Counted from the stretch's first letter, positions 2,967 through 59,937 are shown. The stretch: 64,000 bases of DNA from an uncultured Chloroflexia bacterium (GCA_963816905.1 CAWFMQ010000014.1:172715-236714); one strand, 5' to 3'. Translations and numbers: made by a program. The notes: generated by a model from the sequence alone, not told the origin.

Positions 2967-3816
2967 ATGCCCGAACCGCGAATCCTGGTGACCGGTCTCA
3001 TGTTCGGCGAGTCGCCGCGGTGGCACGAGGACCGCCTGTGGTTCTGCAACTGGGGCAGGCAGGAGGTCGTTGCCGTCGACCTCGACGGCAGGAGTGAGGT
3101 CGTCCTCCGCGTGCCGACCACGATTCCGTTCTCGCATCGACTGGCTGCCCGATGGTCGCCTGCTCGTCGTCTCGGGGCGAGAGGGACTGCTGCTGCGGCA
3201 GGAGCCCGATGGGTCGCTCGCCACGCACGCCGACCTCAGCGCGATCGACCACGGTTTCAACGAGATCGTGGTGGACGGCCGCGGCAACGCCTACGTCAAC
3301 GGCGGCGGCTTCGACCTGATGGCCGGCGAGGCGTTCGCTCCCGGCATCATCGCCCTCGTCACGCCCGACGGCTGCGCGCGACAGGTGGCCGATGGCATCG
3401 CCTTCCCGAATGGCATGGCCGTGACCGGCGACAACTCGACGCTGATCATCGCCGAGTCGTACGGCCGGCGGCTGACAGCGTTCGACATCGCCGCGGACGG
3501 CGGCCTGTCGAACCGCCGTGTCTGGGCCGACCTCGGTGATGGCTATCCGGATGGCATCTGCATCGACGCGGAGGACGCCGTCTGGTACGCGGACGTCCCC
3601 AACATGCGCTGCGTGCGGGTCGGTGAAGGCGGAGACGTGCTGCAGACGGTCAACCTGGACCGCGGGTGCTTCGCGTGCATGCTCGGCGGCCCGGACGGGA
3701 CGACGCTGTTCATGATGGCGGCCGAGTGGCACGGTGCCGCAAAGATGGCCGAGGCGGAACCGACAGGCCAGGTGTTGACGATCGAGGCGCCATGGCCGCA
3801 CGCTGGTTGGCCGTGA
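2967..3816 (+). CDS. SMP-30/gluconolactonase/LRE family protein (apparent +1 frameshift near 3140)
   Basis: RBS GGAGAAACGGAGG before ATG 2967. N-terminus is in frame 0, the remainder in frame 1 (ORF 3070..3816). Family motifs: IAFPNGMAV, GYPDGICID. Confidence 0.7.
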
Positions 3817-4040
3817 GACGTGGAGTTCGGCACTCGTCGGGGCGAGCGAGGGGCCCGGCGGCGAACGCCGCGCGCGTGACAGGCGACGAACTCCGCGCCG
3901 ACTGCCGCCGATGGCGGATCAGCCGCACATGGGGCGCTTCCCGCTCGATCTGGCGAACCGCGACGTGTGCGGGCCGCCACCGGGCAGCGTCCGACGTGGT
4001 AGGTTTCGTTTGCACGGGATCCGAGGATCCCGCGGCCCGG

Positions 4041-4116
4041 GCGGGAGTAGCTCAGTTGGCAGAGCGTCAGCCTTCCAAGCTGAATGTCGCGAGTTCGAAC
4101 CTCGTCTCCCGCTCCA
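4041..4116 (+). tRNA. tRNA-Gly (anticodon UCC)
   Basis: Manual cloverleaf fold: acceptor GCGGGAG/CTCCCGC, D-arm GCTC/GAGC, anticodon loop CTTCCAA, T-arm with TTCGAAC loop, discriminator U plus encoded CCA. Confidence 0.85.
4070..4116 (+). repeat. 47-bp direct repeat (attL-like) = 3' half of tRNA-Gly
   Basis: Identical 47-mer GCCTTCCAAGCTGAATGTCGCGAGTTCGAACCTCGTCTCCCGCTCCA occurs again at 15310-15356. Confidence 0.8.
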
Positions 4117-4289
4117 ATTCTCGTTTTGTGCTCGTGGCGACACGATAACTGCGTCGCGCCTGCATCGGATGGAGCGGCGAATGTGCCCCATCCGGGTGCT
4201 ACAACGCTTCGTCAAGCCCAGCTCAGTTGGGACCGCGGTTGCACCAGGCGACCGCCCGGGGGACCCGTCGCATGGGTGCAAAAGCGAGC

Positions 4290-5783: not shown

Positions 5784-6534
5784 ATGTTGCTCGTCCTCAC
5801 CCCGCTGCTCTTCGGCCTGTCGTTCCTCTCGGGAATGATGGGCCTCGGGGTCGCCTTCGTCGCGATCCCGGTCCTGGGCCTCTTCGGCTACGACCTCAAG
5901 GACGTCATCCAGCCCTGGGCGCTGCTGCTCAACGGCCTGACCGCGATCAGCAGCGCGGTCGTCTTCTGGCGGGCCGGGATGGTCGATCGGCGCGGGCGCG
6001 GCACTGCTCGTGGTCATCACGACGATCGGCGCGCCACTCGGCGTCTGGCTCCTCAGCTTCGCCTCGACCACGCTCGTGTGGTGGCTGTACGTGGGGGTGC
6101 TCGTCTTCCTCGCGGTCCGGATGCTGCTGCCCAAGCGAAAGGCCAGCGAGGACCTCGCGACGATCACCGACAAGGCTCGGCTCGAGGCGGGGGCGGCGGC
6201 CGTGCCCATCTCGGTCTTCGCGGGCTTCCTGGGCGTGGGGCCCGGGTTCCTCCTCATGCCGACGCTGACGCTCGTGGGCTACTCGGCGCGTCTCGCGGCC
6301 GCGACCAACTCGGTGGCGGTGATCCTGCCCTCGTTCTCCGCCTTCGCCGGCCACCTCGGGACCGCCACGTTCGACTGGCTGACCGTGATCGTGACCTCGA
6401 TCGCGGCGGTCATCGGCGCCTGGCTCGGCGCCCGTTTCACGGCCGGACGAGTCAAGAGCGCAACGCTCTCGCGGATCTTCGCCGTCGCGCTCATCATCCT
6501 CGCGCTGCAGCGCGCCTGGATCCTCCTCTCGTGA
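5784..6534 (+). CDS. Sulfite exporter TauE/SafE family membrane protein (frameshift near 5985)
   Basis: ATG 5784 (MLLVLTPLLFGLSFLSGMMGLG...) in frame 0 continues in ORF 6010..6534 (frame 1). Multi-TM DUF81/TauE pattern with two Gly-rich half-domains. Confidence 0.7.
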
Positions 6535-7016
6535 GCACGCCCACCGAATCCGGAACGCGGCTGGTCCGGACGACGCACGAGGTGCACCCGGTGAACCTGC
6601 TCGATGCCGCGAGCGCCCCCGGCGAGCGCACCCGCGTCCACGGCGTTCTCTGGGACGGCGTCCTCAACGCCACGCCCGAGGACACGCTCGACGGCCCGTT
6701 GCCGATCGAAGCGCTGCTGGCGGCACTGGCCGGCTGTGTCATCCGCACCCTCCGCTCCGTGACCGACGCGGCGCACGTCCGCTTCGAGCACGTGCAGTTG
6801 CATGTCGCCGCCGAGCGATCCGACGATCCGCCGGCCATCACCCGCATCCGCCTCGACATCGCCGCCGACACCGAGGTCGCGGTCGAGGAGGCCCGCCGCC
6901 TGGTCGAGCTCGCCCTTCACAACGGCACGATCACCCGCACCGTGGCGCGCGGGACCTCGCTCGACGTTCACCTTGCACTCAACGGCACGCCCACGGAGGT
7001 GACCTATGCCGACTGA
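6531..7016 (+). CDS. OsmC/Ohr family protein
   Basis: GTG 6531 overlaps the tauE stop. ~160 aa with OsmC signature ...ALLAALAGCVIRTL.... Confidence 0.65.
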   Translation: MSTPTESGTRLVRTTHEVHPVNLLDAASAPGERTRVHGVLWDGVLNATPEDTLDGPLPIEALLAALAGCVIRTLRSVTDAAHVRFEHVQLHVAAERSDDPPAITRIRLDIAADTEVAVEEARRLVELALHNGTITRTVARGTSLDVHLALNGTPTEVTYAD

Positions 7017-7335
7017 ACTGATCGTCATCCCTCAGCTGCGGATGGATCTGCCGGCGCCCCGGGTCGACGACGCCGTCGCCGCGGCGGCGCTCATCGCCGA
7101 CCGGACGCGCGCGGGCATCCTGCGCATGCTGCGCGACGGGCCGCACTGCGTGTGCGAGCTGGCCGCCGCCCTGGGCGAGCGACAGAACAACGTCTCGATG
7201 CACCTGGCGCGACTTCGCGAGGCCGGCCTGGTGCGCCAGGTCCGGCACGAGGGCGACGCTCGCCGGGTCTACTACGAGCGCGACGAGGCGGCCCTGGCGG
7301 CGGCCGGCCGCGCCATCGCCGAGGTGCTCGCATGA
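7006..7335 (+). CDS. ArsR/SmtB family transcriptional regulator
   Basis: 109 aa. HTH ...ILRMLRDGPHCVCELAAALGERQNNVSMHLARLREAGLV... with a CVC metal-site motif. ATG overlaps the osmC stop. Confidence 0.8.
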   Translation: MPTELIVIPQLRMDLPAPRVDDAVAAAALIADRTRAGILRMLRDGPHCVCELAAALGERQNNVSMHLARLREAGLVRQVRHEGDARRVYYERDEAALAAAGRAIAEVLA

Positions 7336-8398
7336 CGACGCTCGCGGTCCGCCGGGCGCACGTGCCTCTGCCGCTCGTCGTCGGCGCGCCGTCGGCGTCT
7401 GGCTCATCGCCTGGATCCTCAACGCGCCGCTGGCGGACTGGGCCGCCTTCACCGCCCTGGGGCTTGAGCGCGGCAGCCACCTCGGTGAAGCCGTGGCCTT
7501 CTTCCTGCTCGACGTGCCCAAGGTGCTCCTGCTGCTGCTCGGCATCGTGACCGTCGTTACGCTCATCCGCGGCTTCTTCTCGCCCGAGCGGGTGCGATCG
7601 GCACTCGTGGGCCGGGGGCTCCTGGCGGGGACCTGCGCGGCCGCCTCGTTCGGCGTCGTGACGCCGTTCTGTTCCTGCTCCGCGGTGCCGCTCTTCATCG
7701 GCTTCGTGGAGGCAGGCGTCCCGCTCGGCGTCACCTTCGCGTTCCTCATCAGCAGCCCGATGGTCAACGAGGTCGCGCTGGTGCTGCTGTGGGGCCTCTT
7801 CGGACCCTGGATCGCGCTCACCTACATGGCCGCGGGCCTGGTCGTCGCCGTCGTCGGCGGCCTGGTCATCGGCCGGCTGCACATGGAGCGCTTCGTCGAG
7901 GACTACGTCTGGGCCCTGCAGGGCACCGGCACGGCGACCGTCGAGGTGCAGCTCACCTGGGCGGAGCGGCTCTCCGACGCCTGGCGCTACACGAAGGATC
8001 TTGTGCGGCGGATCGCGCCGTATCTCCTCATCGGGATCGGCATCGGCGCGTTCATCCACGGCTACGTGCCGACGGAGCTCGTGGCCTCGATCGGCGGGCG
8101 GGGCAACCCGCTCGCGGTGCCGCTCGTGGTGCTCATCGCGATCCCGCTCTACTCGAACGCCGCGGGCACCATCCCGATCGTCCAGGCGCTGCTGGCCAAG
8201 GGCATGCCGATGGGCACCACCCTCGCCTTCATGATGGCCATCACGGCCATCAGCCTGCCCGAGTTCATCATCCTGCGCCGCGTCATCAAGAAGCCCCTCA
8301 TGGCGGTCTTCGCGACGGTCGTGACGATCGGGGTCCTGTTCATCGGCTACCTGTTCAACGTCCTCATCCCGCTGACTCGGAAAGGAGTTCCACCGTGA
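7332..8398 (+). CDS. DUF318/ArsP-like permease (TPFCSCS motif); frameshift near 7385
   Basis: ATG 7332 in frame 0 ([13 protein letters not shown]..), then the body in frame 2 (ORF 7493..8398). Conserved TPFCSCS motif as in organoarsenical efflux permease ArsP. Multi-TM. Confidence 0.65.
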
Positions 8399-10128: not shown

Positions 10129-12000
10129 GTGACCAAGTTCCTGTTCTTCTCCGGTAAAGGCGGCGTCGGCAAGACGACCATGGCCTGCGCGACCGCAGTG
10201 GCCGAGGCCGACGCGGGTCGACGCGTGCTGATCGTCACCACCGATCCGGCGTCGAATCTCGCCGACGTCTTCGAGCAGCCGATCGGCCACGCGATCACCG
10301 CCATCGAACGGCGTGCCCAACCTCTGGGCGATGGAGATCGATCCCGACAAAGCGACCGCCGAGTACACCGATCGGACGCTCGCGCCCATCCGGGCGTGTT
10401 CCCCCCGCAGATCGTGCGCGTCATGGAGGAGCAGCTCGCCTCGCCCTGCACCGCGGAGGTGGCCGCCTTCGATCGATTCGCGGACTTCATCGACCCGGGC
10501 GCCCTCGACGTTGCGTCCGACCCGCGACCTTCGACCTCGTGATCTTCGACACGGCACCGACCGGGCACACCGTCCGGCTGCTGGAGCTGCCCGAGGCGTG
10601 GTCGAAGAGCATCTCGGAGGCCGAGGCGGGCAGCGGGCCAGACGTGCATCGGCCCGGCGGCGGCCATCGCCGACGCCAAGGCAAGTACGAGCGGGCACTC
10701 GCGGCGCTCCGCGACCAGGAGCGCGAACGCGCTTCGCGTTCGTGCTCCAGCCCGAGGCGACCGCGATCGCCGAGACCAAGCGAGCCGGCGCCGAGCTGGC
10801 CCGGCTGGGCATCGTGACCACCGAGCTGATCGTCAACGGGATCCTGCCGGCCGAGGAGGCGGATCGACGCCCTTCTTCGCGCTCGCGGATCGCGATGCAG
10901 GAGCGCTACCTCGCGCGAGATCGCGCCGGCAGCTGCCCGTGCCCACCCGCCGCGTCCCGCTGCTCGACGGCGAGGTGCGCGGCATCGCCCGGCTGCGGGC
11001 CTGGCGCCGCTCCTCGCCGATGCCCAGCGCCGCCGGCCCGGTCTTCGGCCGCGGTCGATCGCGGCGCCTCGGACGGCGCACCCACGACACGGCCGCCGCG
11101 ATCGCGACCCTGCGGCCGGCGGCCGGACCGCGGACGGTCTTCTTCGCCGGCAAGGGCGGCGTCGGCAAGACGGCGGTCTCCTGCGCCACCGCGGTCTGGT
11201 CGGCCGGCCAGGGCTACCGGACCCTGCTCGTCACGACGGATCCCGCGGCGCACATCGGCGAGGTCCTGGGCGAAGTCGTCGAGACCGAGCCGACGCCGGT
11301 CGCATGGCGTCGACGGCCTCTGGGCGGCGCGCGTCGATGCCAAGGCCGCGGCGATCGCCTACACCGACCGGATCATCGCCGACGCCGTCGCGCGCGGCCG
11401 CAGCCCGCAGTCGATCGCGGCGATGCGCGAGGAGCTCGACTCCCCGTGCACCGAGGAGATGGCGGCGTTCGACCAGTTCATCGAGCTCGCCAGCCGGCAC
11501 ACCTTCGACGTGACGATCTTCGACACGGCACCGACCGGCCACACGATGCGCCTGCTCGAGCTCCCGATCGACTGGAGCCGCCAGCTCGACGTCAAGGTCT
11601 TCGCGTCGGTCGACGGCGATGCGGCCGACGACGTCGCCAAGGCCCGCTTCGCGGGCGTCATCGACATGATGCGCGACCCCGCGCGGAGCACCTTCGCCTT
11701 CGTCATGTACCCGGAGGCGACCCCGATCGTCGAGGCCAGCCGCGCGATCGACGAGCTCGCCTCGCTCGGCATCCCGCTCGGGCTCGTCGTCGCGAACATG
11801 GTCCTGCCCGAGGAGGCCTGCCGGACACCGTTCGCGCGGGCCCGTCGGCAGATGCAGCAGGCGCTACCTCGGCGACATCGAGGGACGCTTCACGGCGCCC
11901 GTCCTCGAGGTGCCGCTCCTCGACGGCGAGGTCATCGGCCTCGAGCGGACTCAGCGAGCCCTCTTCGCCGCCGGCCATGGGCCTGGTCGCGGTTCCCGCA
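10129..12000 (+). pseudogene. arsA: Arsenite-translocating ATPase ArsA (two-domain), many frameshifts
   Basis: N-half FFSGKGGVGKTT ... DTAPTGHT; second half FFAGKGGVGKTA ... FDTAPTGHTMRLLELP. Both halves are split over all three frames (ORFs 10129.., 10313.., 10539.., 10939.., 11910..). Confidence 0.8.
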
Positions 12001-12897
12001 TAGCCGGAGGCACCGATGCTTCAACAGCAACCCACGATCCGGCGGCTCGCCGCCGCCAGCCAGGCCGCCGAGATCGATGCCTCGCGGCCGGCGCGACCTT
12101 CGGGCCGAGCCTCGCGCGACCCCGGAGTTCGTCCGCCTCTGCTCCGGCGTCGGCGCGCGCTGGGAGCGGATCCGGTCGCCCAGGCCGCGATCAGCGCATA
12201 CGAGGCGAGAAGCAGGAGGACTACCGGGTCGAGGCGGCGATGAACCTGCTCGAGCCAGGAGCGAGAGCGACCGGCCGAGCTCGGCTGCTCAACGCGCGAT
12301 GTATCGCCGTGCCCTCCGTGGTGGCCTACGTCGCGGCCCACGGCCGCGTTCGGGGACCTCTGCCGCGAGACGTCGGCGGTCATCAGCGGCCTGATCGGGA
12401 TCGACTTCGCCGCCAACAGCCGCTCCGGCGGCTGCTGCGGCGGTGAGGGAGGACACCATGCTCAGCACCGAGACTCCACGAGGCGGCCGTCGAGTTCGGC
12501 CGCGCTCTCCGCCAGGCGCCCGCCGTGTCTCGCCTACCGCGCGGCCGAGGCGGCGCTCGACGCGGATCCCGGTCGCCCAGGCCCTGATGGCGGACCTGCG
12601 CCGACCAGCAGGCGTTCATCGCGGCCCAGCAGCGCGGCGAGACGCCGGGCCCGAGCGCAGATCGAGGCCCTGCGGCTGGTGCCAGGCGGACGTCCGGGCG
12701 AACGAGACGATCATGGCCCACCTGCGGGCCACCAACGACGTGAAGGCCTTCCTGCCGACGGTCGCCACCGAGGTCAGCCGGGCGCTCGGCACCGACTACG
12801 CGAGGCTCATCGCTCCGACGAGCTGCTGAAGACCGACGCGGTGGACCGCGCCGAAAGGAGGTAGCGAATCCGGGTCCATGACGAGCGGATGATCCCG

Positions 12898-14150
<1,253 letters not shown>

Positions 14151-14303
14151 GCCGTGCGGCGCACGTCGGCCTTCGTCCGCCCATCACCCGAGCCAGCGCA
14201 TCGCGGCGCTCGACAGGTCCTCTTTCGGTGTAGGCGATCCCGCCGTTAGCGAGGGCGGAGGGGGTCGAGCGAGGGGGCCGCGGGGAGGCGATCGAAGGGC
14301 AGC

Positions 14304-14606
14304 ATGCGGGCAGCCGCCACCGCGAAGCGGGAGAACGGCTACCGCGAGTACAGCGACAGGGACCTCGCCCTGCTCCGGCTCGTGGTCAGCCTGCGTCGCA
14401 TCCGCCTCGGTCCCGAGGATGCCGGCCGCCTTGCGCGACTGTGCCTCGAACGCGGCGCCGTCGATGTCGACCTCGCACCGCTCCTCGCCGACCAGCGCGC
14501 GGCCATCGCCCGCCAGCGGCAGGACCTCGACCGCCTGGAGGACGAGCTCCTCGATCTCGAACTCACCATGTCTGCCGCGGGTCGCGCGGCCAGGGAGGGT
14601 AGGCCA
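14304..14606 (+). CDS. MerR-family regulator remnant (lacks N-terminal HTH helix), read in-frame into arsC
   Basis: ...NGYREYSDRDLALLRLVVSLRRIRLGPEDAGRL + coiled-coil matches the MerR effector/dimerisation region. No HTH was found in the frames checked upstream. No stop before the ArsC Met. Confidence 0.35.
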
Positions 14607-16741: not shown

Positions 16742-16899
16742 CCCCACAGCCCCATCCTCCCTGAGCAGACCAGTGCTCACTCCGCCATTGGGTCGGCCTC
16801 GATATTGGCCCTATGCGACCTTCGAGGCGACCACATGCAAACCCAGCGGTGGGAACCCATCGGGCTCCCGTGCCTTCCCCCCGCCTGGAGGCGCCCAGT

Positions 16900-23141: not shown

Positions 23142-23207
23142 GCAGCGATGTTACGCTCGTAGCATAGAACTGTGCGCGGCGACGCCGCCGCGAGGCGCGA
23201 CGACCGA

Positions 23208-39995: not shown

Positions 39996-40013
39996 TGCGG
40001 TCTCCTTTGGGGT

Positions 40014-40376: not shown

Positions 40377-40408
40377 GAATGTGTCCGTCTCCGGGTGCGA
40401 ATGACCGA

Positions 40409-40819: not shown

Positions 40820-40828
40820 GGGGCGGCC

Positions 40829-41188: not shown

Positions 41189-41236
41189 GTGCGGCTCCCC
41201 GGCAATTCGGCGCGCGACGTCGCAGCGATCGAGGGC

Positions 41237-48357: not shown

Positions 48358-49207
48358 ATGCCGCTGACGGCGGGCGGCGACCTTGCGCTCCTGCTCGTGA
48401 GCGGGTTCGCCGGCCTGCTGGGGGCTCTCGGCGGCGTCGGGGGAGGCCTGCTCGTGGTGCCGGCGCTCACCCTGCTGTTCGGTGTCGACATCCGCCTGGC
48501 AGCGGGCGCCAGCATCGTGGCCGTCATCGCGACCAGTTCGGGCGCTGCCGCGGCCTACATCCGCGACGGCCTGGCGAACCTGCGGATCGGCATGTTCCTC
48601 GAAGTTGGCGACGACCACCGGCGCTGTGGTGGGCGCGCTCGTCGCGGGGTTCGTGGCATCCGAAATGCTGTTCCTGGTCCTCGGGATCATCCTGTTCGCC
48701 TCCGCCGGCATGCAGCTGCTGCGCCTGGCGGAGGATGCGCCCCCCGCGGACGACACCGCGGCCATGCACTCGCGACTGCAGCTTGGCGGGGAGTACTACA
48801 GCGTGCGGCTGCAGCGGTTCGTCCGCTACGTCGCCCGACGCGTCCCGCTCGGGTTCGCGCTGATGTGGGTCGCCGGCCTGGTCTCGGGCCTGATCGGGAT
48901 CGGGTCGGGCGCGCTCAAGGTCGTCGCCATGGACGCAGCCATGGGCCTGCCGATGAAGGTGAGTTCGGCGACCAGCAACTTCATGATCGGCGTGACCGCG
49001 GCCGCCTCGGCCGGGATCTACCTCGCGAGAGGGGACGTGGACGCGCGGATCACCGTCCCGGTGGCGCTCGGCGTGCTGGCCGGCGCGGTCGCGGGCGCCC
49101 GGTTGCTGCCGCGCATCTCCGGCCGCGCGGTGCGCCTGATCTTCATCCCCATCCTGCTGGTGATCGGGGTGGAGACGGTCCTGCGGGGCCTCGGGGTCGG
49201 GATATGA
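48358..49207 (+). CDS. Sulfite exporter TauE/SafE family protein (1-nt indel near 48600)
   Basis: ORF 48358.. N-part + ORF 48482..49207; DUF81 two-half-domain TM pattern. Confidence 0.75.
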
Positions 49208-49563
49208 GCGAGCGGCGCTTCGAGCTGGCCGTCAGCGTGGTGCTCATCGCCGGAGTTGCGGCCAGTGCCATCCTCATGGGGATCGGCTTCCTGGCGTCCT
49301 TCCTCGTGGGCTGGGGCGGCTCGCTGAGCGGAGCGCCTCCGCAACCGTTGGACGCGACGTCGTTCACGGACCTCGCGGACGGGCTGCGCGACCTGCGGCC
49401 GATCGCGATCGCCCAGGCCGGCCTCCTGCTGCTCATCGTCACACCCGTCGCCCGCGTCGCCATCGCGGTCGTGGGCTTCGCCCTCCAGCGCGATCGCGTG
49501 TATGTCGCGATCGCCCTCGCCGTCCTCGCGGTCCTGCTCACCTCGCTGCTCGCGGTCCGCTGA
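49204..49563 (+). CDS. DUF1634 family membrane protein (TauE partner)
   Basis: ATGA overlap with the tauE stop; 119 aa, 3-4 TM helices. Confidence 0.6.
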   Translation: MSERRFELAVSVVLIAGVAASAILMGIGFLASFLVGWGGSLSGAPPQPLDATSFTDLADGLRDLRPIAIAQAGLLLLIVTPVARVAIAVVGFALQRDRVYVAIALAVLAVLLTSLLAVR

Positions 49564-49829
49564 CCCGGAGTCCACAATCAGACCGTGCCCTCCGGGTCCA
49601 TCTTCACAGGATCGGGCACTGCAGGCGGGAGGCCGGCCATGGCCAACGAGACACCGACGGCGCAGGTGGTGAACGGCCAGGCCGGCGACCTGGTGCTCGT
49701 CGCACACCGGGGCGATCGTTCGGTGCTGCTCGCCATGGACCTGCCGCACGAGAAGGCCGACCGGCTCGCCGGCTTCGCGCTGTACCGCACGCCGCCGGGG
49801 AAGCGGACGGGGCCGCTTGCCGCTCCGGC

Positions 49830-50444
49830 CTACGCTCGCCGCCTCGCGACCAGGAGCGCATCGATCGGACCCCGCTCGGGAGGCGTGACGCGCCTGGCGA
49901 TCTCGGCGCGCTCGACCTCGAAATCGGGGTCGGCGTCGAGGAGGTCGCGGCCGATCTCCGCCGCGGTGAACAGCACGTCGGGGTCGCGCGGCCCGCCCTC
50001 GCCCTCGTCGAGGTTCGAGCGATCGTGGCCGACGACGACCAGGCGACCACCCGGCGCGACGGCTCCTGCCGCCCCCGCGTAGATCGGCCGACGGTCCGTG
50101 TCCGTCGGCAGGTGCAGGTAGACGATCGCCACAAGGTCAAAGGCCCGCTCCGGCGGCGCCCAGGAGAACAGGTCGGCTTCCACCCAGCGGACCTGCACTC
50201 CGGCGGCCTCGGCCTGCTTCCGCGCGTTGTCCAGTCCTACCGGTGACCAGTCGACGGCGGTGACGTCCCAGCCCCTCGCGGCGAGCCAGACGGCGTTGGT
50301 CCCGCTCCCGGATGCCAGCTCAAGCGCCCGCCCCGGAGTCAGGGCGGACACGGCGTCCGCCAATGCCGGGTTGGGCCCGGCACCCTCGAAGTCGCCGTCG
50401 CGGTGCCGCTCGTCCCACGCGAGGCGTCGTTCGTCCGGCGACAT
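49830..50444 (-). CDS. Class I SAM-dependent methyltransferase
   Basis: ...LELASGSGTNAVWLAARGWDVTAVDWS... motif I + post-I acidic residue. Confidence 0.7.
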   Translation of the reverse strand: MSPDERRLAWDERHRDGDFEGAGPNPALADAVSALTPGRALELASGSGTNAVWLAARGWDVTAVDWSPVGLDNARKQAEAAGVQVRWVEADLFSWAPPERAFDLVAIVYLHLPTDTDRRPIYAGAAGAVAPGGRLVVVGHDRSNLDEGEGGPRDPDVLFTAAEIGRDLLDADPDFEVERAEIARRVTPPERGPIDALLVARRRA

Positions 50445-50791
50445 CACGCGGAACCCCGCGCCACCGGCCGGCCGCTGCGGATCCAGGCGCTCGTGCCGCC
50501 CCTGACCGACGCCACGTCCTCGAAGCCCCTGGCGGCGAGGAATTCCGTGGCGGAGAGGCTGCGGCTGCCGGACTCGCAGATGACGGCAATGCGCTCGCCG
50601 ACCGGCAGGTTGCCGACCCGGCGCGGCAGCTGGTTCAGCGGCACGTGGAGTGCGGCGGGGACGTGGCCTCGCAGGTACTCCCAGTCCTCGCGGACGTCGA
50701 GGACCGTCACATTCCGATCTCGCAGCAGACCGTCCAATTCGTCGACGCTGATCTCCGGCACGGATCGGCGCATGAAGGAAAACAACGGCAT
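50444..50791 (-). CDS. Rhodanese-domain protein
   Basis: 115 aa; ...TVLDVREDWEY...IAVICESGSRS... catalytic Cys loop. Stop overlaps the methyltransferase start. Confidence 0.75.
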   Translation of the reverse strand: MPLFSFMRRSVPEISVDELDGLLRDRNVTVLDVREDWEYLRGHVPAALHVPLNQLPRRVGNLPVGERIAVICESGSRSLSATEFLAARGFEDVASVRGGTSAWIRSGRPVARGSA

Positions 50792-50814
50792 TGACACCTC
50801 CTTGTGGTGGTGGG

Positions 50815-51645
50815 TCACACGACCTGCAGCGCAAGGTACCCCGCGAGCGTCAGCACGACCAGCGCGAACCCGCGCCCCAGCGTTGCGGCCGGCAGGCGGG
50901 TCGAGAAGGTACCGCCGATCAGCCCTCCGGCGATCGCGCCCAGCGTGAAGAGCACGGTGATCGCAGGGTCGATCGACGCGCCCGTGCCCAGGTGACCCAG
51001 GAGCGCCGTTCCGCTGTTGATCGCGATGATCGGTAGGGATGTGCCGATCGCCTTCGACATCGGCAAGCGGAGGACGACCACGAGCGCCGGGACGATGAGA
51101 AAACCGCCGCCGACGCCGAAGAACCCGGTGAGGAGGCCCACGCCGACCGCCGTCACGATGAACGGGCCGAAGTCGACGATCGGGCACGCCGTCGGCAGCA
51201 TCGAGCGGAGGCGAGCCCGCATTGAGTGGAATGGCAGCGACGTCGTCGGAAGGAACTCGAGCTCGGCCACCTGTCGTTCGGCGGTGCGCTCCTGGAGCCG
51301 CGCCCGGCGCCAGGTCGCGATGGCCGCCACGACCATCAGGACGACGAAGGCCGCGAGCAGCTCGCTCGGCGGCACCTCGCGATTGAGGTACCCGCCGATC
51401 GCGGTGCCTGCGATCCCCACGACGCCGAACAGCAGGGCGCGCTGCCACAGCACGTTTCCGCGGCGGGCATGCGGTAGCGTCGCCCACGCCGCGCTGATCC
51501 CGACGACGATCAGCGACATCGTGGTCGCCTCCCGGGCGGGGACGCCGAGGACGCCGACGAGCAGCGGCACGGTCAGGATGGAGCCGCCACCACCGACCAG
51601 CCCGAGCGACAGGCCGACCAGCCCCCCGAGGACGATGGAGATCAC
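50815..51645 (-). CDS. Sulfite exporter TauE/SafE family protein (intact)
   Basis: 276 aa; duplicated Gly-rich TM half-domains (GGGGSILTVPLL.. / GVGGGFLIVPAL..). Confidence 0.8.
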   Translation of the reverse strand: MISIVLGGLVGLSLGLVGGGGSILTVPLLVGVLGVPAREATTMSLIVVGISAAWATLPHARRGNVLWQRALLFGVVGIAGTAIGGYLNREVPPSELLAAFVVLMVVAAIATWRRARLQERTAERQVAELEFLPTTSLPFHSMRARLRSMLPTACPIVDFGPFIVTAVGVGLLTGFFGVGGGFLIVPALVVVLRLPMSKAIGTSLPIIAINSGTALLGHLGTGASIDPAITVLFTLGAIAGGLIGGTFSTRLPAATLGRGFALVVLTLAGYLALQVV

Positions 51646-51998
51646 GCGGTCGGGCCCGCCGGCCGGGCTTCCGGCCCCGCAACCGGACCGCGCGAGAACC
51701 CGGGCACGTGCTCGCCCGTCATCCGCTCCTGGATGCGGACCGCGATCGCCTCCTCCACCACCGCGTCCGGGTCGCGCAGTCCGCCCATCGTGGCACGCAC
51801 GCCGACGAGGCTCGCGTACAGCGGCGGGCAGGTGGGACAGGATTCCAAATGGCGCTCGACGGTCGAGCGCGTCCGGCCGTCAAGCTCGCCGTCGAGATAC
51901 GCCGAGACGTGACGGCGCGCCTGCCAGCAGCGGATCGGCTGGGCCAGGCTCGCCTGGCGCCGTGCGTCGTCCTTCGCCAGTGCGCTCACGACCATCAT
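51642..51998 (-). CDS. Anti-sigma factor, zf-HC2 type (HxxxCxxC)
   Basis: ...ARRHVSAYLDGELDGRTRSTVERHLESCPTCPP... In the same frame as the sigma-factor C-terminus with no intervening stop. Confidence 0.45.
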   Translation of the reverse strand: MMVVSALAKDDARRQASLAQPIRCWQARRHVSAYLDGELDGRTRSTVERHLESCPTCPPLYASLVGVRATMGGLRDPDAVVEEAIAVRIQERMTGEHVPGFSRGPVAGPEARPAGPTA

Positions 51999-52492
51999 CC
52001 TTCCGCGCCGCAGGCGCTGTTTCGCCGCCGGCAGCCCGATCTCCATCGACGACGGCGATCTCGGCGGCCGTCCAGCCCAGCGCGTCGTGCAGCACGACCG
52101 GCAACCGGTAGATGACCGGGAGCCGCGCCAGCGCATCCTCGAGCTCGTCGCGGAGTTCGGCCCGTTCGAGCACCCGCTCCGGCTGGACCGAGTATTCGTC
52201 GTCCTGCCAGTCGGCCTCGATCGGCGTCGATGTCCAGCTCGTCATGGTGGCGCCGCGACCGGTCGATGATCCGGTTGACAAGGCTGCGCCGCAGCCAGGC
52301 CGGGAGCGCAGCGGGGTCGCGCAGCTGGTCGCGACGCCGCCACGCCCCGATGATCGTCTCCTGGGCGCAGTCCTGCGCGAGATCGGGGTCGGCCAGCAGG
52401 CGAGCGGCCAGCCGGACGAGGCGCGGCAGTTCGCCCGCCAGCCTCGTGCCGAACTCGTCCGCGTCCGCCGGTGGGTTCGTTGCGGCCGTCAC
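51998..52492 (-). pseudogene. ECF (sigma-70 family) sigma factor, two frameshifts
   Basis: Region 2 ...DCAQETIIGAWRRRDQLRD... (ORF 51995..52492); region 4 ...LPVIYRLPVVLHDALGWTAAEIA... (ORF 51880..52281), then ...LPAAKQRLRRGR (ORF 51642..). Confidence 0.65.
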
Positions 52493-52985: not shown

Positions 52986-55286
52986 CTATCTGTAGATCAC
53001 GAAGGCGTCGAGGTCCAGGCGAGCGCCCGCGGAGGTGTTGCGCAGCTCGATCGTGTGGGAAGCGCTGGTCGTCCAGCTCGTCGAGAAGAGCACCCGCTTC
53101 CACGTGGCGGAGCTCGAGCGGCAGTTCACCGTCGTACGGTAGACGCCGTCGATGTAGACCTTCACGTTGCCGCGCGACGAGCCCGTCGCGGTCACCCAGG
53201 CGATCGCCCGGCCGGTAAAGGTCGTCCCGGCGCGAGCGCCCGTGCTGGTGGACCAGTGCGTGGCGCCGCCCGAGGCGGACGCGGTGGTCTGCCTGTGCCA
53301 GGTTCCGGTGGTGTAGCGCACCGTGGCGCTGGTGTCATCGCGAATCTGCGGTGTGAACGTCGGGCCGGTGCTCCAGGGGCCGGTGTTGTACGCGTTGTCG
53401 GTCGCACGGGCGCGGAAGCGGTAGGCATGGCCCAGCGAGAGGGACATCGCCTGTCGCTCCCAGCCGTTGACAGCAACGTCCGTCCACGCGCCACCGTCGC
53501 GGCTCTGCTGCAGGTCGTAGTACCAGAGGCCGGAGCCCGAGCCGTCCGTGCCACTCCATCGCAGCAGCGTGGAACCCTTGCCGAGCGTCGAGGGCACGAC
53601 GCCCGCGGGATACGGCGCCCGGGTGATGGTCGGCGGAGTGGTATCGACCGTGAAGCCGATCGAGAGCCTGAGAGCACCCGAGTCGCCCTGGTGTCCGCCG
53701 ATCTCGATCCAGACCGTCTCGCCGGCGTAGGCACCCAGGTTCATCGCCTCGGCCCCACCCGAGCCGGTTTCATCCACGCACGGCCAGGGGTGGTAGCCAC
53801 CGCTGCCGTCTTCCCGGAACGCGTCGAGGACCGTGTCGTAACCGCTGCCGCCGGTGCTCACCGTGAATGACCCGTCGTCCGGCGCGGTGACCTCGTACCA
53901 CACGCTCGCGCGGTCGCTGTCGCAGGCGCCGCTGCTCCAGTCGTCGTCGGTCGCCCCGGACGTGTCCTGGCTGGCGTGGTACGGGTAGTCTCTGACAACC
54001 GTGGCCGTGCCCATGGTGTCGTTTTCCGGCCCGGACCAGGTCACGGTCACCGGGTCGGCCGTTGCCTGAGCAGAGCTGCCGTCGCTGTGCGCCACGAGGG
54101 CCGTATAGGTCCGTGAGGTAGCGGTGCTACTGCTCACCGACGCCGCGCAGGTCGTACCGCTGCCGCAGGTCGTCACGATCAGCCCGTCGCTCCGCCGGAT
54201 CACGACAGCGTACTCGGTGGGCCCGACGTCCCGACTGGCGGTCGCCGTGAGCGTCACCGGGGTGCCCAGGACCACGTTCGTGGCACTCGCCGAGAGGGCG
54301 ACCGACCACGATGGAGCGGCACTGTCGGTCATGCTCCAGCCCTCGAGCGCGTACTGGTTGAGGAAGGCCCACGAGATCTCGACCCAGCCGTTGCGGGCGA
54401 AGCCCCCGCCCCACGAGTTCTCGATCCACACGCCCCAGGCGTCGTACATCGGCGCGAAGACCCCATGCAGGCCGCGCGACGTCGTGCCGGCCGCCGGCAC
54501 GTCGACGTAGGGGTTCGTGTAGCTCGCCGAATTGAAGTTGGGGTAGATGGGAATGACGAGCAGCACCGGCGAGCCGCCGGAGATGACGGCCTGGACGGCG
54601 CTCCTGTAGTCGCCGCCGCCCGCGCCCGAGAACAGCAGGGAGTGGCCGAGGGTCTTGTACGGCGCAGCGGCGGTGCGCTCGGCGGACGTCGGCTGCGAGG
54701 TGTAGTCGTAGTCGCCCTGCGCGTAGTCGCTGCGGTGGGCGATGCCCTGCAATTCCATGATGCCGAAATTCCCCGGGTAGCTCGACCCGCGGTCCTGGCC
54801 CTGCGCGATCTGGGCGTAGAGATACATGGGGGCGAACGTCGCGGTCTCGCCGGTGCCGTGATCACGCAGCCAGTAGCGGTAGTAGTAGCCGCTGGACCAT
54901 GAACCGCACGAGCCGACGGGACCCTGGTTGCCCACCGGCGGCGCCCACTGGCTCAGGTCGACGGACGTCGGGTAGGTCGTGTCCTGGCGAAGTCGGGTCG
55001 CCACGGACGTCGACACGCCCCGGGTGACCCCCGGCGCGAGCTTCGCGCCGAGCGCACGTGCGCCGCCGCCCGTGCCTGCCACGGGCACGCTGCCGTCCAG
55101 CGCCTTCGGAAAGCGTCCCGTCGGCGACGCCGCCGGTCCCGAAGATGGTCCGGCAGCGCCGACCGGGCCGGCCAGCGGCACGGCGAGCGAGACCACCAGG
55201 AGCCAAGCGAGGAGCACCGCCCCGACTCGACCGATGGACGAGGTGAAGGCTCGCCGGCTCGGCGATGTGGGCACTCGCGGTCTCAT
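52986..55286 (-). CDS. Secreted papain-like (C1 family) cysteine peptidase with large C-terminal beta-rich domains
   Basis: Signal peptide; ...QGPVGSCGSWSSGYY... (QxxxGSCW-type catalytic Cys region); 766 aa intact. Confidence 0.65.
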   Translation of the reverse strand: MRPRVPTSPSRRAFTSSIGRVGAVLLAWLLVVSLAVPLAGPVGAAGPSSGPAASPTGRFPKALDGSVPVAGTGGGARALGAKLAPGVTRGVSTSVATRLRQDTTYPTSVDLSQWAPPVGNQGPVGSCGSWSSGYYYRYWLRDHGTGETATFAPMYLYAQIAQGQDRGSSYPGNFGIMELQGIAHRSDYAQGDYDYTSQPTSAERTAAAPYKTLGHSLLFSGAGGGDYRSAVQAVISGGSPVLLVIPIYPNFNSASYTNPYVDVPAAGTTSRGLHGVFAPMYDAWGVWIENSWGGGFARNGWVEISWAFLNQYALEGWSMTDSAAPSWSVALSASATNVVLGTPVTLTATASRDVGPTEYAVVIRRSDGLIVTTCGSGTTCAASVSSSTATSRTYTALVAHSDGSSAQATADPVTVTWSGPENDTMGTATVVRDYPYHASQDTSGATDDDWSSGACDSDRASVWYEVTAPDDGSFTVSTGGSGYDTVLDAFREDGSGGYHPWPCVDETGSGGAEAMNLGAYAGETVWIEIGGHQGDSGALRLSIGFTVDTTPPTITRAPYPAGVVPSTLGKGSTLLRWSGTDGSGSGLWYYDLQQSRDGGAWTDVAVNGWERQAMSLSLGHAYRFRARATDNAYNTGPWSTGPTFTPQIRDDTSATVRYTTGTWHRQTTASASGGATHWSTSTGARAGTTFTGRAIAWVTATGSSRGNVKVYIDGVYRTTVNCRSSSATWKRVLFSTSWTTSASHTIELRNTSAGARLDLDAFVIYR

Positions 55287-55753
55287 CGAACTTCCTTTCG
55301 ATCAACCTGTGCGCGACGTGCCCGTCGAGGCCGGCCCTCGATCCGTGCATCCGCATCGGAGATCGCGGAAATGGCCCACCCTCAGGGCATCGAGCGATTC
55401 GCTACTGCCGGATTGTCGACCGGGTGCGGGTGGCGGGACAGGGGCCCGACAGACTCCGGCCGGCGGTACGATCCGCCGAGTGGACGCTCCGGGCGGACAG
55501 GGTCGTCACCTTCTGACCGGCCGAGGGAGGTCCGGGCGGCATGATCGCCGCCTTCCATGAGCTCACCGAGATCGCGAACAAGGCAGCGCACGACAGCGTT
55601 GCGGGGTCGGTCCGAACCGTCGCTGGCGACGTGCGCGATCCGCTGCCGTTCGCAGCCCGGCGGAGCCGAAAAACCCCGTAGTCCTGCGGTGGCTCGCATG
55701 GCCCCTGACGACCTACGGTGCGGGCATCGGAACGCACAGCAGGAGTCAGGCAC

Positions 55754-56520
55754 ATGCTCGATCTCGCACCCCCGACCGGACCTGGTGCCGCGCGCCGGTC
55801 GACCGTCGACCACGTCGCCACGGCACTCGGCCGGGCGTTCGTGGACGCCATCGTCGCCGGTGACTTCGATCGGCTCGAGGCGCTGTTCGCGCCTGACGTG
55901 CGGTTCCGCGCGATCATCCCCGGCGAAGTACCAGGAGGCCTCGACGGCCGCCGGTGCCCGCGCGATCATCGAGGATTGGTTCGGCGGGACGGACCGCACG
56001 GGAGCTCGCTCGGTTCGACGGTCGACCTGGTCGGCGACCGACTCGCGATCGGATACCGGCTCGAACTGACCGACGACGGCGAGCGGCGCGTCGTGGAGCA
56101 GCACGTCGCGGCGACGGTCGATGGCGCGTCGTTCCGCGACCTCGCCGTCGTCTGCTCCGGCTTTCGGCCGCTCGCCACGGATCGCCGGGGCGCGTCCGCG
56201 ACGCGTGGCACGGACGCCTCGCCGGGCGATGACGACCACGCCGAGGCACCGGCGTTCACGCCGGCCGCCCACCTCGACGCCACCGGCCTCTCCTGCGCGA
56301 CCTTGACCCCGACGATCTCCGCCACGGTCCGTGGGCTCGACTTCGGCGCCGTCCTCGAGATCGTCACCGACGACCCCGAGGCCGAGGAGGGCCTGCGGTC
56401 CTGGACGAGGCTCACCGGCAACGAGCTGCGTCGCGGCCGAGGCCGGACCCGGGTCGGCCCGCCGATTCGGCATTCGTCGATCGCCGCGGGACGCGGCTAC
56501 CACCGGCAGGAAAGGGACCG
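55754..56520 (+). pseudogene. NTF2/SnoaL-like domain fused to a TusA-like domain (two internal frameshifts)
   Basis: RBS AGGAG; ...AFVDAIVAGDFDRLEALFAPDVRF..., shift, ...GARAIIEDWFGG..., shift, ...LAIGYRLELTDDGERRVVEQHVA...; then ...HLDATGLSCATLTPTISATVRGLDFGAVLEIVTDDPEAEEGLRSWTRLTGNEL (TusA fold, degenerate CPxP). Confidence 0.4.
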
Positions 56521-56524
56521 ACTG

Positions 56525-56890
56525 ATGGCCACGCATCATCGTCAACGCCACCCACGGACCGGAGGATCCGGAGCGCGCGACCATGCCGTTCGTCGTCGGG
56601 CAACGTGGCCGCGACGGCCGATCAGGACGCGATCGTGCTCCTCACGATCGACGGCGCCTGGCTCGGCGTGCGCGGACGCGCCGGACGGCGTGGCCCACGC
56701 GGGCCTGCCGGCCCTGCCGCGAGGTGATGTCGCAGTTCGTCGCGAACGGCGGCCGGATCTGGGCGTGCGGCGCGTGCACCAAGCCCCGGGGCATCACGCA
56801 GGATGACCTCGTCGACGGGCGCGACGATCGTGACGGCCGCCCAGGTCGTCGAGCTTCTTGCATCGGGCGCTGCTTCGCTTACCTTCTGAG
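56525..56890 (+). pseudogene. DsrE/DsrF-like family protein, 4-5 frameshifts
   Basis: Pieces IIVNATHGPEDPERATMPFVVG / ADQDAIVLLTIDGAWLGV / VMSQFVANGGRIWACGACTKPRGITQDDLVDG / GATIVTAAQVVELLASGAASLTF spread over three frames. Confidence 0.5.
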
Positions 56891-56893
56891 CCT

Positions 56894-59800
56894 GATGCGA
56901 ACCGTCGGGCTGATCGGTCGCGAGCACGAGATCGAGGGAGCTTCGCGCCGCCGCCGCTGCGGCGCGGCGGCGGCGCGGCGGCCTCGTGCTCGTCGCCGGC
57001 GACGCCGGGATCGGCAAGACGGCGCTCGTCGAGCGGACGCTGGAGCGGTCGCCTGCCGATCGTGCTGCGCGGGGCCGCCCGGGCCTCCGGGGCGGCCCCG
57101 TTCGAGCCGCTCGTGGCAGCGATCCGGTCCCATCCCGGCTGGCCGGCGATCGCCGCCGAGCGTGCTCTCGAGGCCGGCGCCGGCGACCGGCGCGGCCGGG
57201 ATGCCATCTGCTCGCTGTTCGGCGAGCTCGCACCCTCGGGCGGCGCGCGCGCCCGAGCCGGCGCGGCGGTGGCGGGGCCGGCCGCCGACGGCGACCCGGA
57301 CGCGACCCGCGACGCGATGTGCCGGCTCGTCGTCGAGCTCGCCCGGATCGAGCCGCTGGCGATCGTCCTCGACGACCTGCAGCGCGCCGACCACGCGACG
57401 CATCGACGCGCTGCCGATGCTCGCGCGGATCGGCCGCGCGGGAGCCGCTGCTCGTCGTCGGGATCTACCGGACCGACGAGCTGCCGCGCTCGAGCCCGGT
57501 CCGGCGCCTGCGCGTCGAGCTGCGGCGGGACGACCGGCTGCACGAGATCGTCCTCGGTCCCGCTCGACGCCGCGTCGACGGCGGCGCTCGCGGCCCGTAC
57601 CCTCGGCGCCCGACCGGACGACCTCCTGGCGCGACGGCTGTTCGACCGCAGCCAGGGCCTGCCGCTGTTCGTGGAGGAGCTGGCCGCTGCCCTCCTCGCC
57701 GACGAGGCGATCGTGATCGCCGACGGCGTCGCGACGCTCGTCGCGCGACGACCTGCCCATCCCGGAGACATTGCGCGACAGCATCCTGATCCGCGCCGAC
57801 GGCATGGCGCCCGCGGACCGCGAGGCGCTCGCGACGGCCGCGCTCCTCGGCGACGAGGTGGACGCGACGCTCGTGGACGAGCTGGCGGCGGCAACGACGC
57901 CTGGCGACGCGCCGGGGTGGAGCGCGGGATCCTCATCGCCCGCGGAGAGGGCAGCGTCGCCTTCCGGCACGGGCTCGTTCGCGAGGTCCTGCTCGACGAT
58001 CTGCCGTCGCCGAGCGGCGGACCCAGCATCGCCGGATCGCCGAGATCCTCGCGGCCCGCGGCGCGGAGCCGCTCGTCGTGGCCGAGCACTGGCTGCGCGC
58101 CGGCGAGACGCGCGAGGCCGTCGCGTGGCTCCTCCGCGCCGCCGAGGCGTCGTGCCGCGTGCATGCCTATCGGGACGCCGCGAGCGCCTACCGGCGGGCA
58201 CTCGACGAGGATCGAGGCGCGCTCGCCTCGCCGGTCGACGTGCTCGAAGCGTCTTGCGGCGTGCCTCGAGCTCTCCGGAAGTCTCGGGGAGGCGGCGAGG
58301 ACATGGGAGACGGCAGCCGCGGCGCGGGCGGTGGACGGACGGCCCGATCTCGCCGGCGAGGACCAGCGGCGGCGCGCGCGGGTGCTCGAGGTCCAGGGCC
58401 GCTGGCCCAGGGCGATCGAGGCCCGGCTGGCGGCGGTCGCTGAGTTCGAGGCGGCGGGGCTTCCCGCGGAGGCGGCGACGGAACGGCTGGCGGCCGCGGC
58501 CCATCTCCGGTCGGCGGCGGACTTCACCGCGGCGCTCGGGCTGCTCGGACCTCGCGCGCGACCGAGGCCCGCGAGGCGGGTCGGGTGGACCTCGAGGCGC
58601 GGGCGATCGGGCTCGAGGGGAACGTCCTCGCCCGGATGGGCACGGGCCGACGAGGGGCTCCGCGCTGGTCCGCGAGGGCCTGACGCTCGCGCTCGACGGC
58701 GGGCTCACGGCGGCCGCGGCCGAGCTGTTCCAGCGCCTCGCCGACTCCCTGGAGCACGCGGGCAGCTACGATCCGGCGCGGACGGCGTACCTCGAGGGCG
58801 CCGACTACTGCCGGACGCGAGCGATCGAGTCGACGGCGCAGCTCTGCCTGGCCTGCATGTCGGTGGTGCTCTGGCAGACCGGGCGACTGGTCGGAGGCCG
58901 AGCGGACGTCGCGCGAGGTGATCGCCTCAGCGGACGCGACGCAGCACGCGCGCGCCGTCGCGCGAGGGGATCCTGGGGATCGTGGCCGCCCTGCGCGGCA
59001 GCGCCGGCCGGGCGCGGCCACACCTCGAGGCGTCCCTGCAGATCGCCCGGCGGATCGAGCTGACCGCGATGGAGCTCATCTGCGAGCTGGGGCCTCGCCC
59101 TCTGCGACCGCCTCGATGGCGACGAGGCGGGCGCGGTCGAGCGGTGCCGCCGGCTGCTCGCCCGCTGGGAGCGCACCGAGGAGCGCCACTACGTCGTACC
59201 GGCCCTCCGCTGGGCCGCGACCGTGTTCGCCGAGCAGAACGACGCGGAAGGAGGTCCGTGCATGCGCCGATGCGCTGGCACGGATCGCCGCCCAGACGGC
59301 GCAGCCCGAAGCCATCGCGGCGCTGGCCGCGACGCTCGGCGAGGCCGCCTCGCTCGAGGGCGACGCGGACGCCGCGGCCGCGCATTTCGCCGGCGCACTC
59401 GAAGCCATCTCCGTCCGCGACCTGCCCTTCGAGCGCGCGGAGATCGGACGGCGCGCCGGTGTCGCCCTGGTCCGCGTCGGCCGCCGCGACGACGGGCTGG
59501 CGGCGCTCGTCGCGGCCGCCCGCACGGCCCGGCGCCTGGGCGCCACCCCGCTCGGTGTCATGGTCGCGGCGGACATGGCTGCACTCGGCGAGCCGGTCGA
59601 GCGCCGGCTCGGCGCGCGGGAAGCGCGTCGACTCGCCGACCGGGGCCTGACCCACAGGGAGCTCGAGGTCATCCGGCACGTGGCGCACGGCCTGACGAGC
59701 CGGGAGATCGGTCGGGCGCTGTTCATCAGCCCTCGCACCGTCGAGATGCACGTCGGGAGTGCGCTCACCAAGCTCGACTGTCGAACGCGAGCCGAGGCGG

Positions 59801-59937
59801 TCCAGCGGGTCGCCACGCTCGGCCTGCTGACAGCCTGGGCCGAACCTCCGAGGGCACGCCCGCCACGCTGCGCCGGCGGATCCGCGCCGGGCGTCTCGAC
59901 GCTACCAAGGTCCGACGCAATTCGACGGTTACGCTGA
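56894..59937 (+). pseudogene. LAL-family (AAA ATPase + TPR + LuxR HTH) transcriptional regulator, many frameshifts
   Basis: N-terminal MRTVGLIGREHEIEG...LVAGDAGIGKTALVE (Walker A); ...LAIVLDDLQRAD... (Walker B); C-terminal ...LTHRELEVIRHVAHGLTSREIGRALFISPRTVEMHV... The pieces are scattered over ORFs 56858.., 56986.., 57771.., 58918... Confidence 0.65.

Follow-up and report, generated by a model that had tools for sequence, protein, structure and literature searches.

Pervasive frameshifts in a 64-kb stretch of an uncultured Chloroflexia genome are very probably consensus errors and not gene decay

We use codon-usage segmentation, profile searches and frameshift-aware alignment to study the reading frames of a 64,000-nucleotide stretch of DNA from an uncultured Chloroflexia bacterium (the window, meaning the whole stretch analysed, with positions counted from its first letter). 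Genes such as those for the ATPase ArsA, the chaperonin GroES, the lipoprotein enzyme Lgt and a LAL-type regulator are recognisable here only if the reading frame is changed one or more times along their length. An earlier note, made from the sequence alone, had described these frameshifts as pervasive, and we find that this holds and that the extent is larger than it had claimed: about 78 frame-disrupting insertions and deletions (indels) fall in at least 24 genes across the 64 kb. This total is made up of the shifts located by our aligner, the Pfam-backed breaks in a response regulator and an ABC ATPase, and at least three switches called by a codon model in an ABC-2 permease.

The window has a G+C content of 70%, and long spurious open reading frames (ORFs) are plentiful in all six frames. 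Because of this, frameshifts cannot be demonstrated from ORF lists alone, and we therefore segment the sequence by codon usage with a Viterbi model that has six coding frames plus a non-coding state and forbids stops (codon tables were self-trained for comparison with control loci); the resulting stop-to-stop fragments were searched against Pfam. Same-strand frame switches occur at 1.5 per kb in the window versus 0.52-0.89 per kb in comparably GC-rich control loci, among them a complete Pengzhenrongella genome; another locus from a long-read metagenome-assembled genome (MAG), L008, shows 1.56 per kb, like the window. For most of the genes that had been claimed as frameshifted, the Pfam profile coordinates carry over from one frame into the next. 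Individual sites were placed by aligning intact homologues to the window with a purpose-written, frameshift-aware protein-to-DNA dynamic-programming aligner, which returns zero shifts for the control genes OsmC, rhodanese, ArsD, ArsR and orf113. The frame changes within recognisable genes are really present in the sequence, above background. They are, along the window (lengths in amino acids, aa, or nucleotides, nt):

2967-3813, plus strand: SMP-30/gluconolactonase gene (SGL); three shifts, +1 near 3135, +1 near 3493 and -1 near 3651.
5784-6531, plus strand: first TauE/SafE exporter; one +1 at about 5993-5996, with Pfam TauE 5-64 and then 66-236 in another frame.
7332-8398, plus strand: ArsP-type permease; -1 near 7387, the first 19 codons lying in the other frame.
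10129-12000, plus strand: ArsA ATPase; 14 shifts, with Pfam ArsA_ATPase pieces in four frames.
12015-12826, plus strand: two YlbF-like genes; six shifts in each, against orthologues of 140 and 122 aa in contig L037 (introduced below), 79-80% identity, no stops.
12925-14000, plus strand: MmsA (methylmalonate-semialdehyde dehydrogenase); five +1 shifts, the gene ending at codon 356 of 516.
24777-25415, minus strand: NarL-type response regulator; REC and GerE in different frames, the shift lying between about 24970 and 25060.
25425-26723, minus strand: histidine kinase; three hidden +1 shifts near 26555, 26362 and 26286, net frame restored.
26743-28475, minus strand: ABC-2 permease and ABC ATPase; an ATPase shift at about 28070-28083 and, by the codon model, several frame changes in the permease.
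30468-31371, plus strand: voltage-gated-type K+ (Kv) channel; +1 at 30913-30915.
36500-39196, minus strand: HdrA-GltD-like fusion oxidoreductase; three shifts, -1 at 38247, +1 at 38003 and +1 near 37870.
41240-41729, minus strand: hemerythrin; +1 at about 41288-41291, which puts the stop and the 16 codons before it out of frame.
45097-45499, plus strand: DUF302 gene; +1 at about 45422-45424, resulting in an in-frame fusion to the glutaredoxin gene.
45791-46088, plus strand: GroES (Cpn10); +1 at about 45889-45895, with Cpn10 2-33 and then 30-92 in another frame.
46869-47700, plus strand: Lgt; +1 at about 47181-47187, with LGT 1-93 and then 94-240 in another frame.
48358-49204, plus strand: second TauE/SafE exporter; +1 (an A) at 48603, with TauE 1-71 and then 71-236 in another frame.
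51645-52492, minus strand: extracytoplasmic function (ECF) sigma factor with zf-HC2; +1 at 52053 and at 52222-52224, regions 2 and 4 in different frames.
56162-56886, plus strand: TusA and DsrE; one shift in TusA and five +1 shifts within 360 nt in DsrE.
56895-59835, plus strand: LAL-type regulator (AAA_16 and GerE); 16 shifts, 13-14 of them +1.

The intact sequences against which these sites were placed come from several sources. The closest, R, is a relative of about 94% identity made by merging L029 and L030 (42,144 bp), both from ENA ERZ25039489 contig_27215 (118 kb); it was reached as the sole other member in the 90% cluster of the C1-protease-like ORF at 52989-55286 (minus strand). Between window positions 64000 and 30216 R is collinear, with a nucleotide identity of 88-95%, except that 4.6 kb of the window (55482-60106) is absent from it, seen as a break in blastn collinearity with L029. 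Exact clusters gave the contigs L031 and L033 (ERZ25039489), L032 (JGI) and, from other ENA assemblies, L034 and L035, of which the former carries a MEGAHIT-style name and the latter a scaffold name. Homologue searches with the frame-restored LAL and MmsA proteins gave L037, L038, L039 (NCBI) and L040 (JGI): L037 and L038 hold a syntenic ArsR-ArsD-ArsA-YlbF-YlbF-MmsA operon, and L039 and L040 hold TusA-DsrE-LAL. These closer homologues were used instead of a 41%-identical Deinococcus LAL homologue found by tblastn, which is too distant to resolve frames. For 33-42 kb, a scan of GTDB representatives with the HdrC-like protein returned only relatives of at most 57% identity, which serve as outgroups; no close relative covering 15-30 kb of the window was found. 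When the window is aligned as nucleotides with R and L031, 109 indel events appear in 32.4 kb.

We begin with the first 15 kb. The intact 282-aa SGL orthologue of L031 aligns at 92.9% once three shifts are allowed, the window's extra G at 3134 is visible against that contig, and the Pfam SGL match (50-245) is found in one frame only. Before a single extra base the first TauE is identical to the 249-aa TauE of L033 (100% over aa 1-71), and after it the identity is 98.9% (aa 71-249); its orthologue in L034 runs uninterrupted for 249 aa. ArsP orthologues from short-read assemblies are 347 aa long and align with one shift at 85% identity in the frameshift-aware alignment. The ArsA profile is met in pieces (1-127 and 119-153, and in the second half 2-58 and 61-266); allowing 14 shifts, 615 aa of the intact L037 orthologue (620 aa) can be aligned at 89.6% identity, free of stops. 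The two YlbF-like genes that follow were absent from the earlier list and together bear 12 shifts, one of them having six +1 insertions within 370 nt. For MmsA, Aldedh pieces appear in three frames (51-166, 198-284 and 289-331), and the 516-aa homologue P0182 aligns at 94.9% over aa 1-350 with five shifts.

Between 24 and 31 kb, the Response_reg match of the response regulator falls in the 22849-25437 frame and its GerE match in that of 24768-25097. The adjacent kinase had been listed with its fellow two-component kinase as intact. Its ORF does stay open, and placement against P0302 (446 aa, 63-65% identity) reveals that it conceals three +1 shifts which together restore the frame and leave the N-terminal translation, including the membrane domain, garbled. 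In the ABC ATPase, ABC_tran 1-94 lies in one frame and 100-137 in another; for the ABC-2 permease the support is a partial ABC2_membrane_3 match (161-285 of 347) and the Viterbi segments only. The Kv channel has Ion_trans 4-142 in one frame and Ion_trans 166-226 with Ion_trans_2 in another, and the intact 301-aa orthologue of R aligns to it as aa 1-149 and 150-301 in two frames.

From 41 to 60 kb, the same pattern can be followed against R and the contigs. The extra base in the hemerythrin gene is missing in both R, where the orthologue has 163 aa, and the JGI contig L032; the DUF302 and glutaredoxin genes share one frame in the window and are separate genes in R (an indel pair at 45135/45237, upstream of the DUF302 domain, is not assignable to window or relative). 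GroES is intact in R (99 aa), the extra C at 47187 in Lgt is seen against R, and the extra A of the second TauE is missing from both R and L033. The 282-aa sigma factor ORF of R is split over three frames of the window, its aa 1-90, 91-146 and 147-282 each matching at 98% identity. Removing the two extra bases joins regions 2 and 4 and zf-HC2 into a single 282-aa ORF, as in the relative (L029 12794-13642), and the sigma factor with its anti-sigma-type domain is predicted to be one fused protein, not two genes. TusA and DsrE were compared with their uninterrupted orthologues in L039 and L040, which have 120 and 119 aa (79% and 87% identity, no stops); the TusA shift is verified by homologues, and the NTF2-like part of the gene as claimed earlier lacks such verification. 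The most extreme case is the LAL regulator, for which 972 of the 974 aa of P0062 align at 89.8% identity with 16 shifts, two codon indels and no stops, an outcome repeated with P0064 and L039. TusA, DsrE and LAL are kept as a unit in many metagenomic contigs, and in L039 (5274-8925) and L040 (3705-7356) this triad adjoins a P-type cation ATPase.

The HdrA-GltD-like gene deserves separate mention since it might be suspected of being a chimera, and the earlier note had made any inference from it depend on whether error or decay explains the frameshifts. Four frame segments align, and the same three break sites are found against three outgroups. In those relatives (L004, a complete genome, L019 and L001) the gene is a single ORF of about 920-950 codons (931-962 from stop to stop). 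Because it is a single ORF in three relatives including a complete genome, the fusion is genuine, which settles the matter of the chimera: it is a real conserved protein, and what is spurious is confined to its three frame breaks. The gene sits in a cluster on the minus strand (33223-41236) with an HdrC/HdrE-like Fe-S membrane protein, an HdrA-like flavoprotein, FlpD/MvhD, TusA, DsrE, DsrE2 and ArsR, and the cluster is syntenic in uncultured Chloroflexia MAGs, in Phycicoccus MAGs and in the complete genome of Pengzhenrongella phosphoraccumulans.

Most of the genes on the earlier list are thus located by Pfam or homologue alignment, with the permease, as said, backed by a partial profile match and the codon model. 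The exception is HsdS, whose listing as frameshifted we find unsupported: the sole match is to Methylase_S with E=0.32 at 60996-61424 (minus strand), which lies outside the span of 2967-59937 given for the frameshifts and adjoins a truncated hsdM fragment.

Now we consider how selection acts on the broken genes. The earlier note had named dN/dS (the ratio of nonsynonymous to synonymous substitution rates) and indel positions, both compared with a close relative, as checks. Against the ~94% relative, dN/dS is equal in frameshift-bearing and intact genes, at 0.163 (3,273 codons) versus 0.169 (5,188 codons); the overall Nei-Gojobori value for the window versus its relatives is 0.185 (9,379 codons). 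Segment by segment in the restored frame, most breaks have ratios of 0.03-0.22 to either side (for example 0.05, 0.11 and 0.07 in the sigma factor, 0.09, 0.07 and 0.07 in HdrA-GltD, and 0.03 and 0.20 in the second TauE); GroES (65 codons) and the Kv channel have a higher value on one side. In addition, no in-frame stop occurs in the roughly 5,900 restored codons, which bear about 75 frameshifts. The counts in LAL, ArsA and the YlbF-like genes are implausible as decay because neutral decay lasting long enough to fix so many indels would add nonsense codons and erode identity.

The frameshifts are also private. None of the ~16 checkable window frameshifts is common to the ~94% relative, and R carries its own at other sites, in genes unbroken in the window (the third TauE, CzcD, the C1 protease C-terminus, YgaP, the HdrC-like gene and OsmC), together with further frameshifts in its HdrA-GltD-like gene. 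Site 62884, a candidate window frameshift, was rejected, as L033 shows the window to be continuous there and the relative to be broken. Five frameshifted genes are uninterrupted in short-read contigs: TauE (249 aa) and ArsP (347 aa) in the MEGAHIT-named L034, and TusA (120 aa), DsrE (119 aa) and LAL (974 aa) in JGI/NCBI contigs. Orthologues in L035 are intact as well. The JGI, Logan and ENA assemblies add dozens of full-length LAL and MmsA homologues, with identities of 75-92%.

We note separately that the contigs L029, L030, L031, L033 and L038 (from ERZ25039489 and ERZ25039462) have many private frameshifts of their own. Miscalled genes among the relatives include an HdrC-like protein of 149 aa (394 aa in the window), an ArsP of 204 aa and a split ArsA, and their HdrA-GltD-like gene is shattered, with spurious opposite-strand calls.

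Quantitative inspection of the indels themselves reveals what kind of event they are. In the two densest (hot) segments for which homologues exist, 82 of the 87 gaps against intact orthologues are 1-2 nt long, and insertions of that size outnumber deletions by 65 to 17, about 4:1; in the collinear sequence we count about 12 events of +1 and about 4 of -1. The inserted bases follow base composition (G 29, C 17, A 8, T 3). The earlier note had placed several indels in simple runs, which does not prove to be a general feature: 16 of the 57 +1 insertions (28%) fall in runs of at least two, against a background of 41%, and none in runs of at least four. The hot-segment indels look like random base insertion, not replication slippage. 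Bacterial mutation has a deletional bias, and this excess of insertions runs opposite to it.

The breaks are unevenly spread: the density of frame switches shows overdispersion (index of dispersion 2.3, p=5e-5). Counted against homologues, the hot segments at 10.3-13.9 kb and 56.4-59.3 kb hold 6-8 frameshifts per kb and the collinear sequence about 0.5 per kb, a roughly 15-fold variation along one contig. For a third hot segment, at about 25.0-28.1 kb, the codon model gives a raised density; it has at least 8 breaks and could be counted only in part. The segment at 56.4-59.3 kb falls inside the 4.6 kb lacking in R, and the ars-mmsA segment is rearranged among relatives. GC content explains little of the density (Spearman 0.31, p=0.09). 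A link to the motif TCGA, with methylation in mind, was tried and rejected: seven of the 12 first-found sites (which include 3134, 30913, 45422, 48603, 52053 and 52224) have the motif within 8 nt, with a raw p of 4e-4 that was post hoc and comes to about 0.05 when corrected, and the association was replicated neither on 84 independent sites (p=0.28) nor in the relative; it is probably chance.

Beyond the small indels, the window contains lesions of another kind and several loci that appear undisturbed. The C-terminal 160 aa of MmsA are found nowhere in the window, and nucleotide homology to L037 and L038 stops exactly at 14000. The interval 12925-15068 thus holds a truncated mmsA followed by an ORF that is MerR-like (positions 29-108 only of the CueR profile) and continues as a thioredoxin-type ArsC; in L037 the homologue of this MerR/ArsC ORF lies upstream of the ars operon, inverted relative to the window. 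At the other end, 60996-62087 has a lower GC content (0.66) and is not alignable to the relative. It includes a C-terminal fragment of N6_Mtase (profile 236-306 of 311; 61710-62087, minus strand) from hsdM and, at 61-62 kb, a ZT_dimer piece on the minus strand, opposite to CzcD. From these fragments, the interval looks like debris of a type I restriction-modification system and a second CzcD gene. The mmsA truncation and the 61-62 kb fragments may be real rearrangement or chimeric joins; the verdict on the frameshifts is unaffected.

Modules of TauE, OsmC, rhodanese, hemerythrin, DUF1634 and ArsR recur as paralogous sets at 5784-7335, 48358-51645 and 62457-64000, and L033 is a mosaic matching several of these modules at 86-95% identity. 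Such repeated TauE/OsmC modules could confuse assembly and polishing. Two secreted proteins appear intact, one of 386 aa (15623-16780, minus strand) with three internal repeats of about 95 aa ('GGVRIFARPFTGGALTPSYAA...') and one of 643 aa (18220-20148, plus strand) with a signal/lipoprotein-like N-terminus and an HExxH motif; neither has a Pfam or NCBIfam match. Two gene pairs at 21962-23150 and 28840-30033 (minus strand) resemble toxin-antitoxin systems, one combining HepT and an MNT nucleotidyltransferase, the other a RES-domain protein and a helix-turn-helix partner (Rv2175c-like); they would fit an accessory-island setting.

What, then, produced the frameshifts? The earlier note had judged that the pattern fits indel-prone, uncorrected long reads at least as well as pseudogenisation. 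With dN/dS, the privacy of the lesions, the intact orthologues and the lack of stops in hand, the artefact is clearly favoured, and we hold it very probable that essentially all of the ~78 indels of 1-2 nt are errors of the assembly consensus and not mutations of the organism. The window would most likely be part of a long-read MAG never polished with accurate reads. The hot segments, we infer, are strain-variable DNA represented by very few reads or by mixed strain haplotypes; the consensus there would stand near the raw-read indel error, and well-covered collinear DNA would keep about 0.5 errors per kb. Relatives from ENA ERZ25039462, ERZ25039489 and ERZ25039527 bear Flye-style contig_N names, and Microflora Danica long-read MAG records share this naming, the ERZ accessions themselves not being matched to that project. 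The Microflora Danica long-read assemblies are Nanopore-only, made with Flye (--meta, --nano-hq) and one round of Medaka, and coverage-related errors are reported for them (PMC12313526); residual indels that lead to frameshifts below about 40x coverage have been documented (PMC9262707).

Several points weigh against this attribution. The shifts in the response regulator, the ABC genes and the kinase were read from Pfam and from one homologue of 63-65% identity. The indel spectrum, dominated by insertions outside homopolymers, lacks the classic Nanopore signature of homopolymer deletion, which lowers our confidence in a specific platform and not in the artefact explanation, and the link of the window to the Nanopore project is circumstantial. 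Real pseudogenes, too, tend to gather in accessory-type DNA such as that of the hot segments, and the mmsA truncation and the 61-62 kb fragments are some real or structural decay within the window.

Among the alternatives, the one that survives best is that the indels are real variants within the population, with minority-strain alleles picked up or haplotypes blended by the assembler. The hot segments are indeed strain-variable, and a collapsed-haplotype consensus is known to give rise to apparent frameshifts (PMC8445201). This explanation is, however, largely a sub-mechanism of the artefact, and 6-16 indels per kb with random inserted bases are unlike segregating alleles; as a separate account we regard it as very improbable. 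Genuine ongoing pseudogenisation by real frameshift mutations, which we regard as highly improbable, could draw on the number of genes affected, on the lesions other than frameshifts (mmsA cut at nt 14000, the hsdM and ZT_dimer fragments) and on the coincidence of the hot segments with accessory DNA. Yet dN/dS is that of intact genes, with no sign of relaxed selection; the restored codons are free of nonsense; 16 independent frameshifts at 90% protein identity in LAL are not credible under neutral decay; the bias is toward insertions, without a slippage context; no checkable lesion is common to the 94% relative; and in the kinase three +1 events restore the frame. A third possibility places a real process in the hot segments alone, inserting single bases into accessory DNA by error-prone repair or synthesis on new islands, or as early island decay. 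If true, the frameshift clusters in ArsA-MmsA, in the response regulator, kinase and ABC genes and in TusA-DsrE-LAL would be genuine; we rank it below the two preceding explanations, as very unlikely, because the affected genes keep about 90% protein identity without stops. Finally, biological recoding by programmed ribosomal frameshifting or transcriptional slippage has next to no probability, since beyond a few sites that adjoin short A/G runs (GAAAAG in groES, for example) nothing specific speaks for it, and the orthologues are single-frame, the sites have no common motif, and up to 16 of them occur per gene in both directions.

Because the indels are taken to be consensus errors, the genes are best treated as functional once their frames are corrected, including the sulfur, metal and arsenic genes (TauE, the HdrA-like genes, TusA/DsrE, ArsA and LAL). 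This matters as quality control and not for the biology: without frame correction, pseudogene counts, annotation, metabolic reconstruction and claims of genome reduction would be wrong. No fewer than 24 genes of the 64 kb would wrongly be called broken, the same caution extends to related ENA assemblies, and the error density peaks in strain-variable islands, the very regions most often mined for novel accessory functions. The output of this analysis is a set of about 78 sites to correct.

It is useful to set the window beside systems in which broken genes have known causes. In pseudogene-rich genomes that undergo reductive evolution, such as those of Mycobacterium leprae and Sodalis glossinidius, selection is relaxed, and there are nonsense mutations, larger deletions, insertion sequence elements and lesions shared within the lineage. 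These genomes resemble the window in having broken genes among intact neighbours, but these hallmarks of their decay do not accompany the window's frameshifts. Collapsed-haplotype artefacts give apparent frameshifts where diverged copies merge; the case described, in which allele-specific assembly corrects them, is a diploid eukaryote (PMC8445201), and in the window such a mixture would be of strains. The nearest likeness is the fragmentation of ORFs by residual indels in long-read (Nanopore or PacBio) assemblies, the problem that IDEEL-type tests measure and that proovframe, Homopolish and Kastor address. In place of homopolymer deletions, non-homopolymer +1 insertions dominate in the window, and the density varies about 15-fold on one contig. 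In both, indels of 1-2 nt split conserved genes and are missing from the orthologues of accurate assemblies, the density appears to depend on local support, and the effect on gene calling is the one seen here (PMC9262707, PMC12007338).

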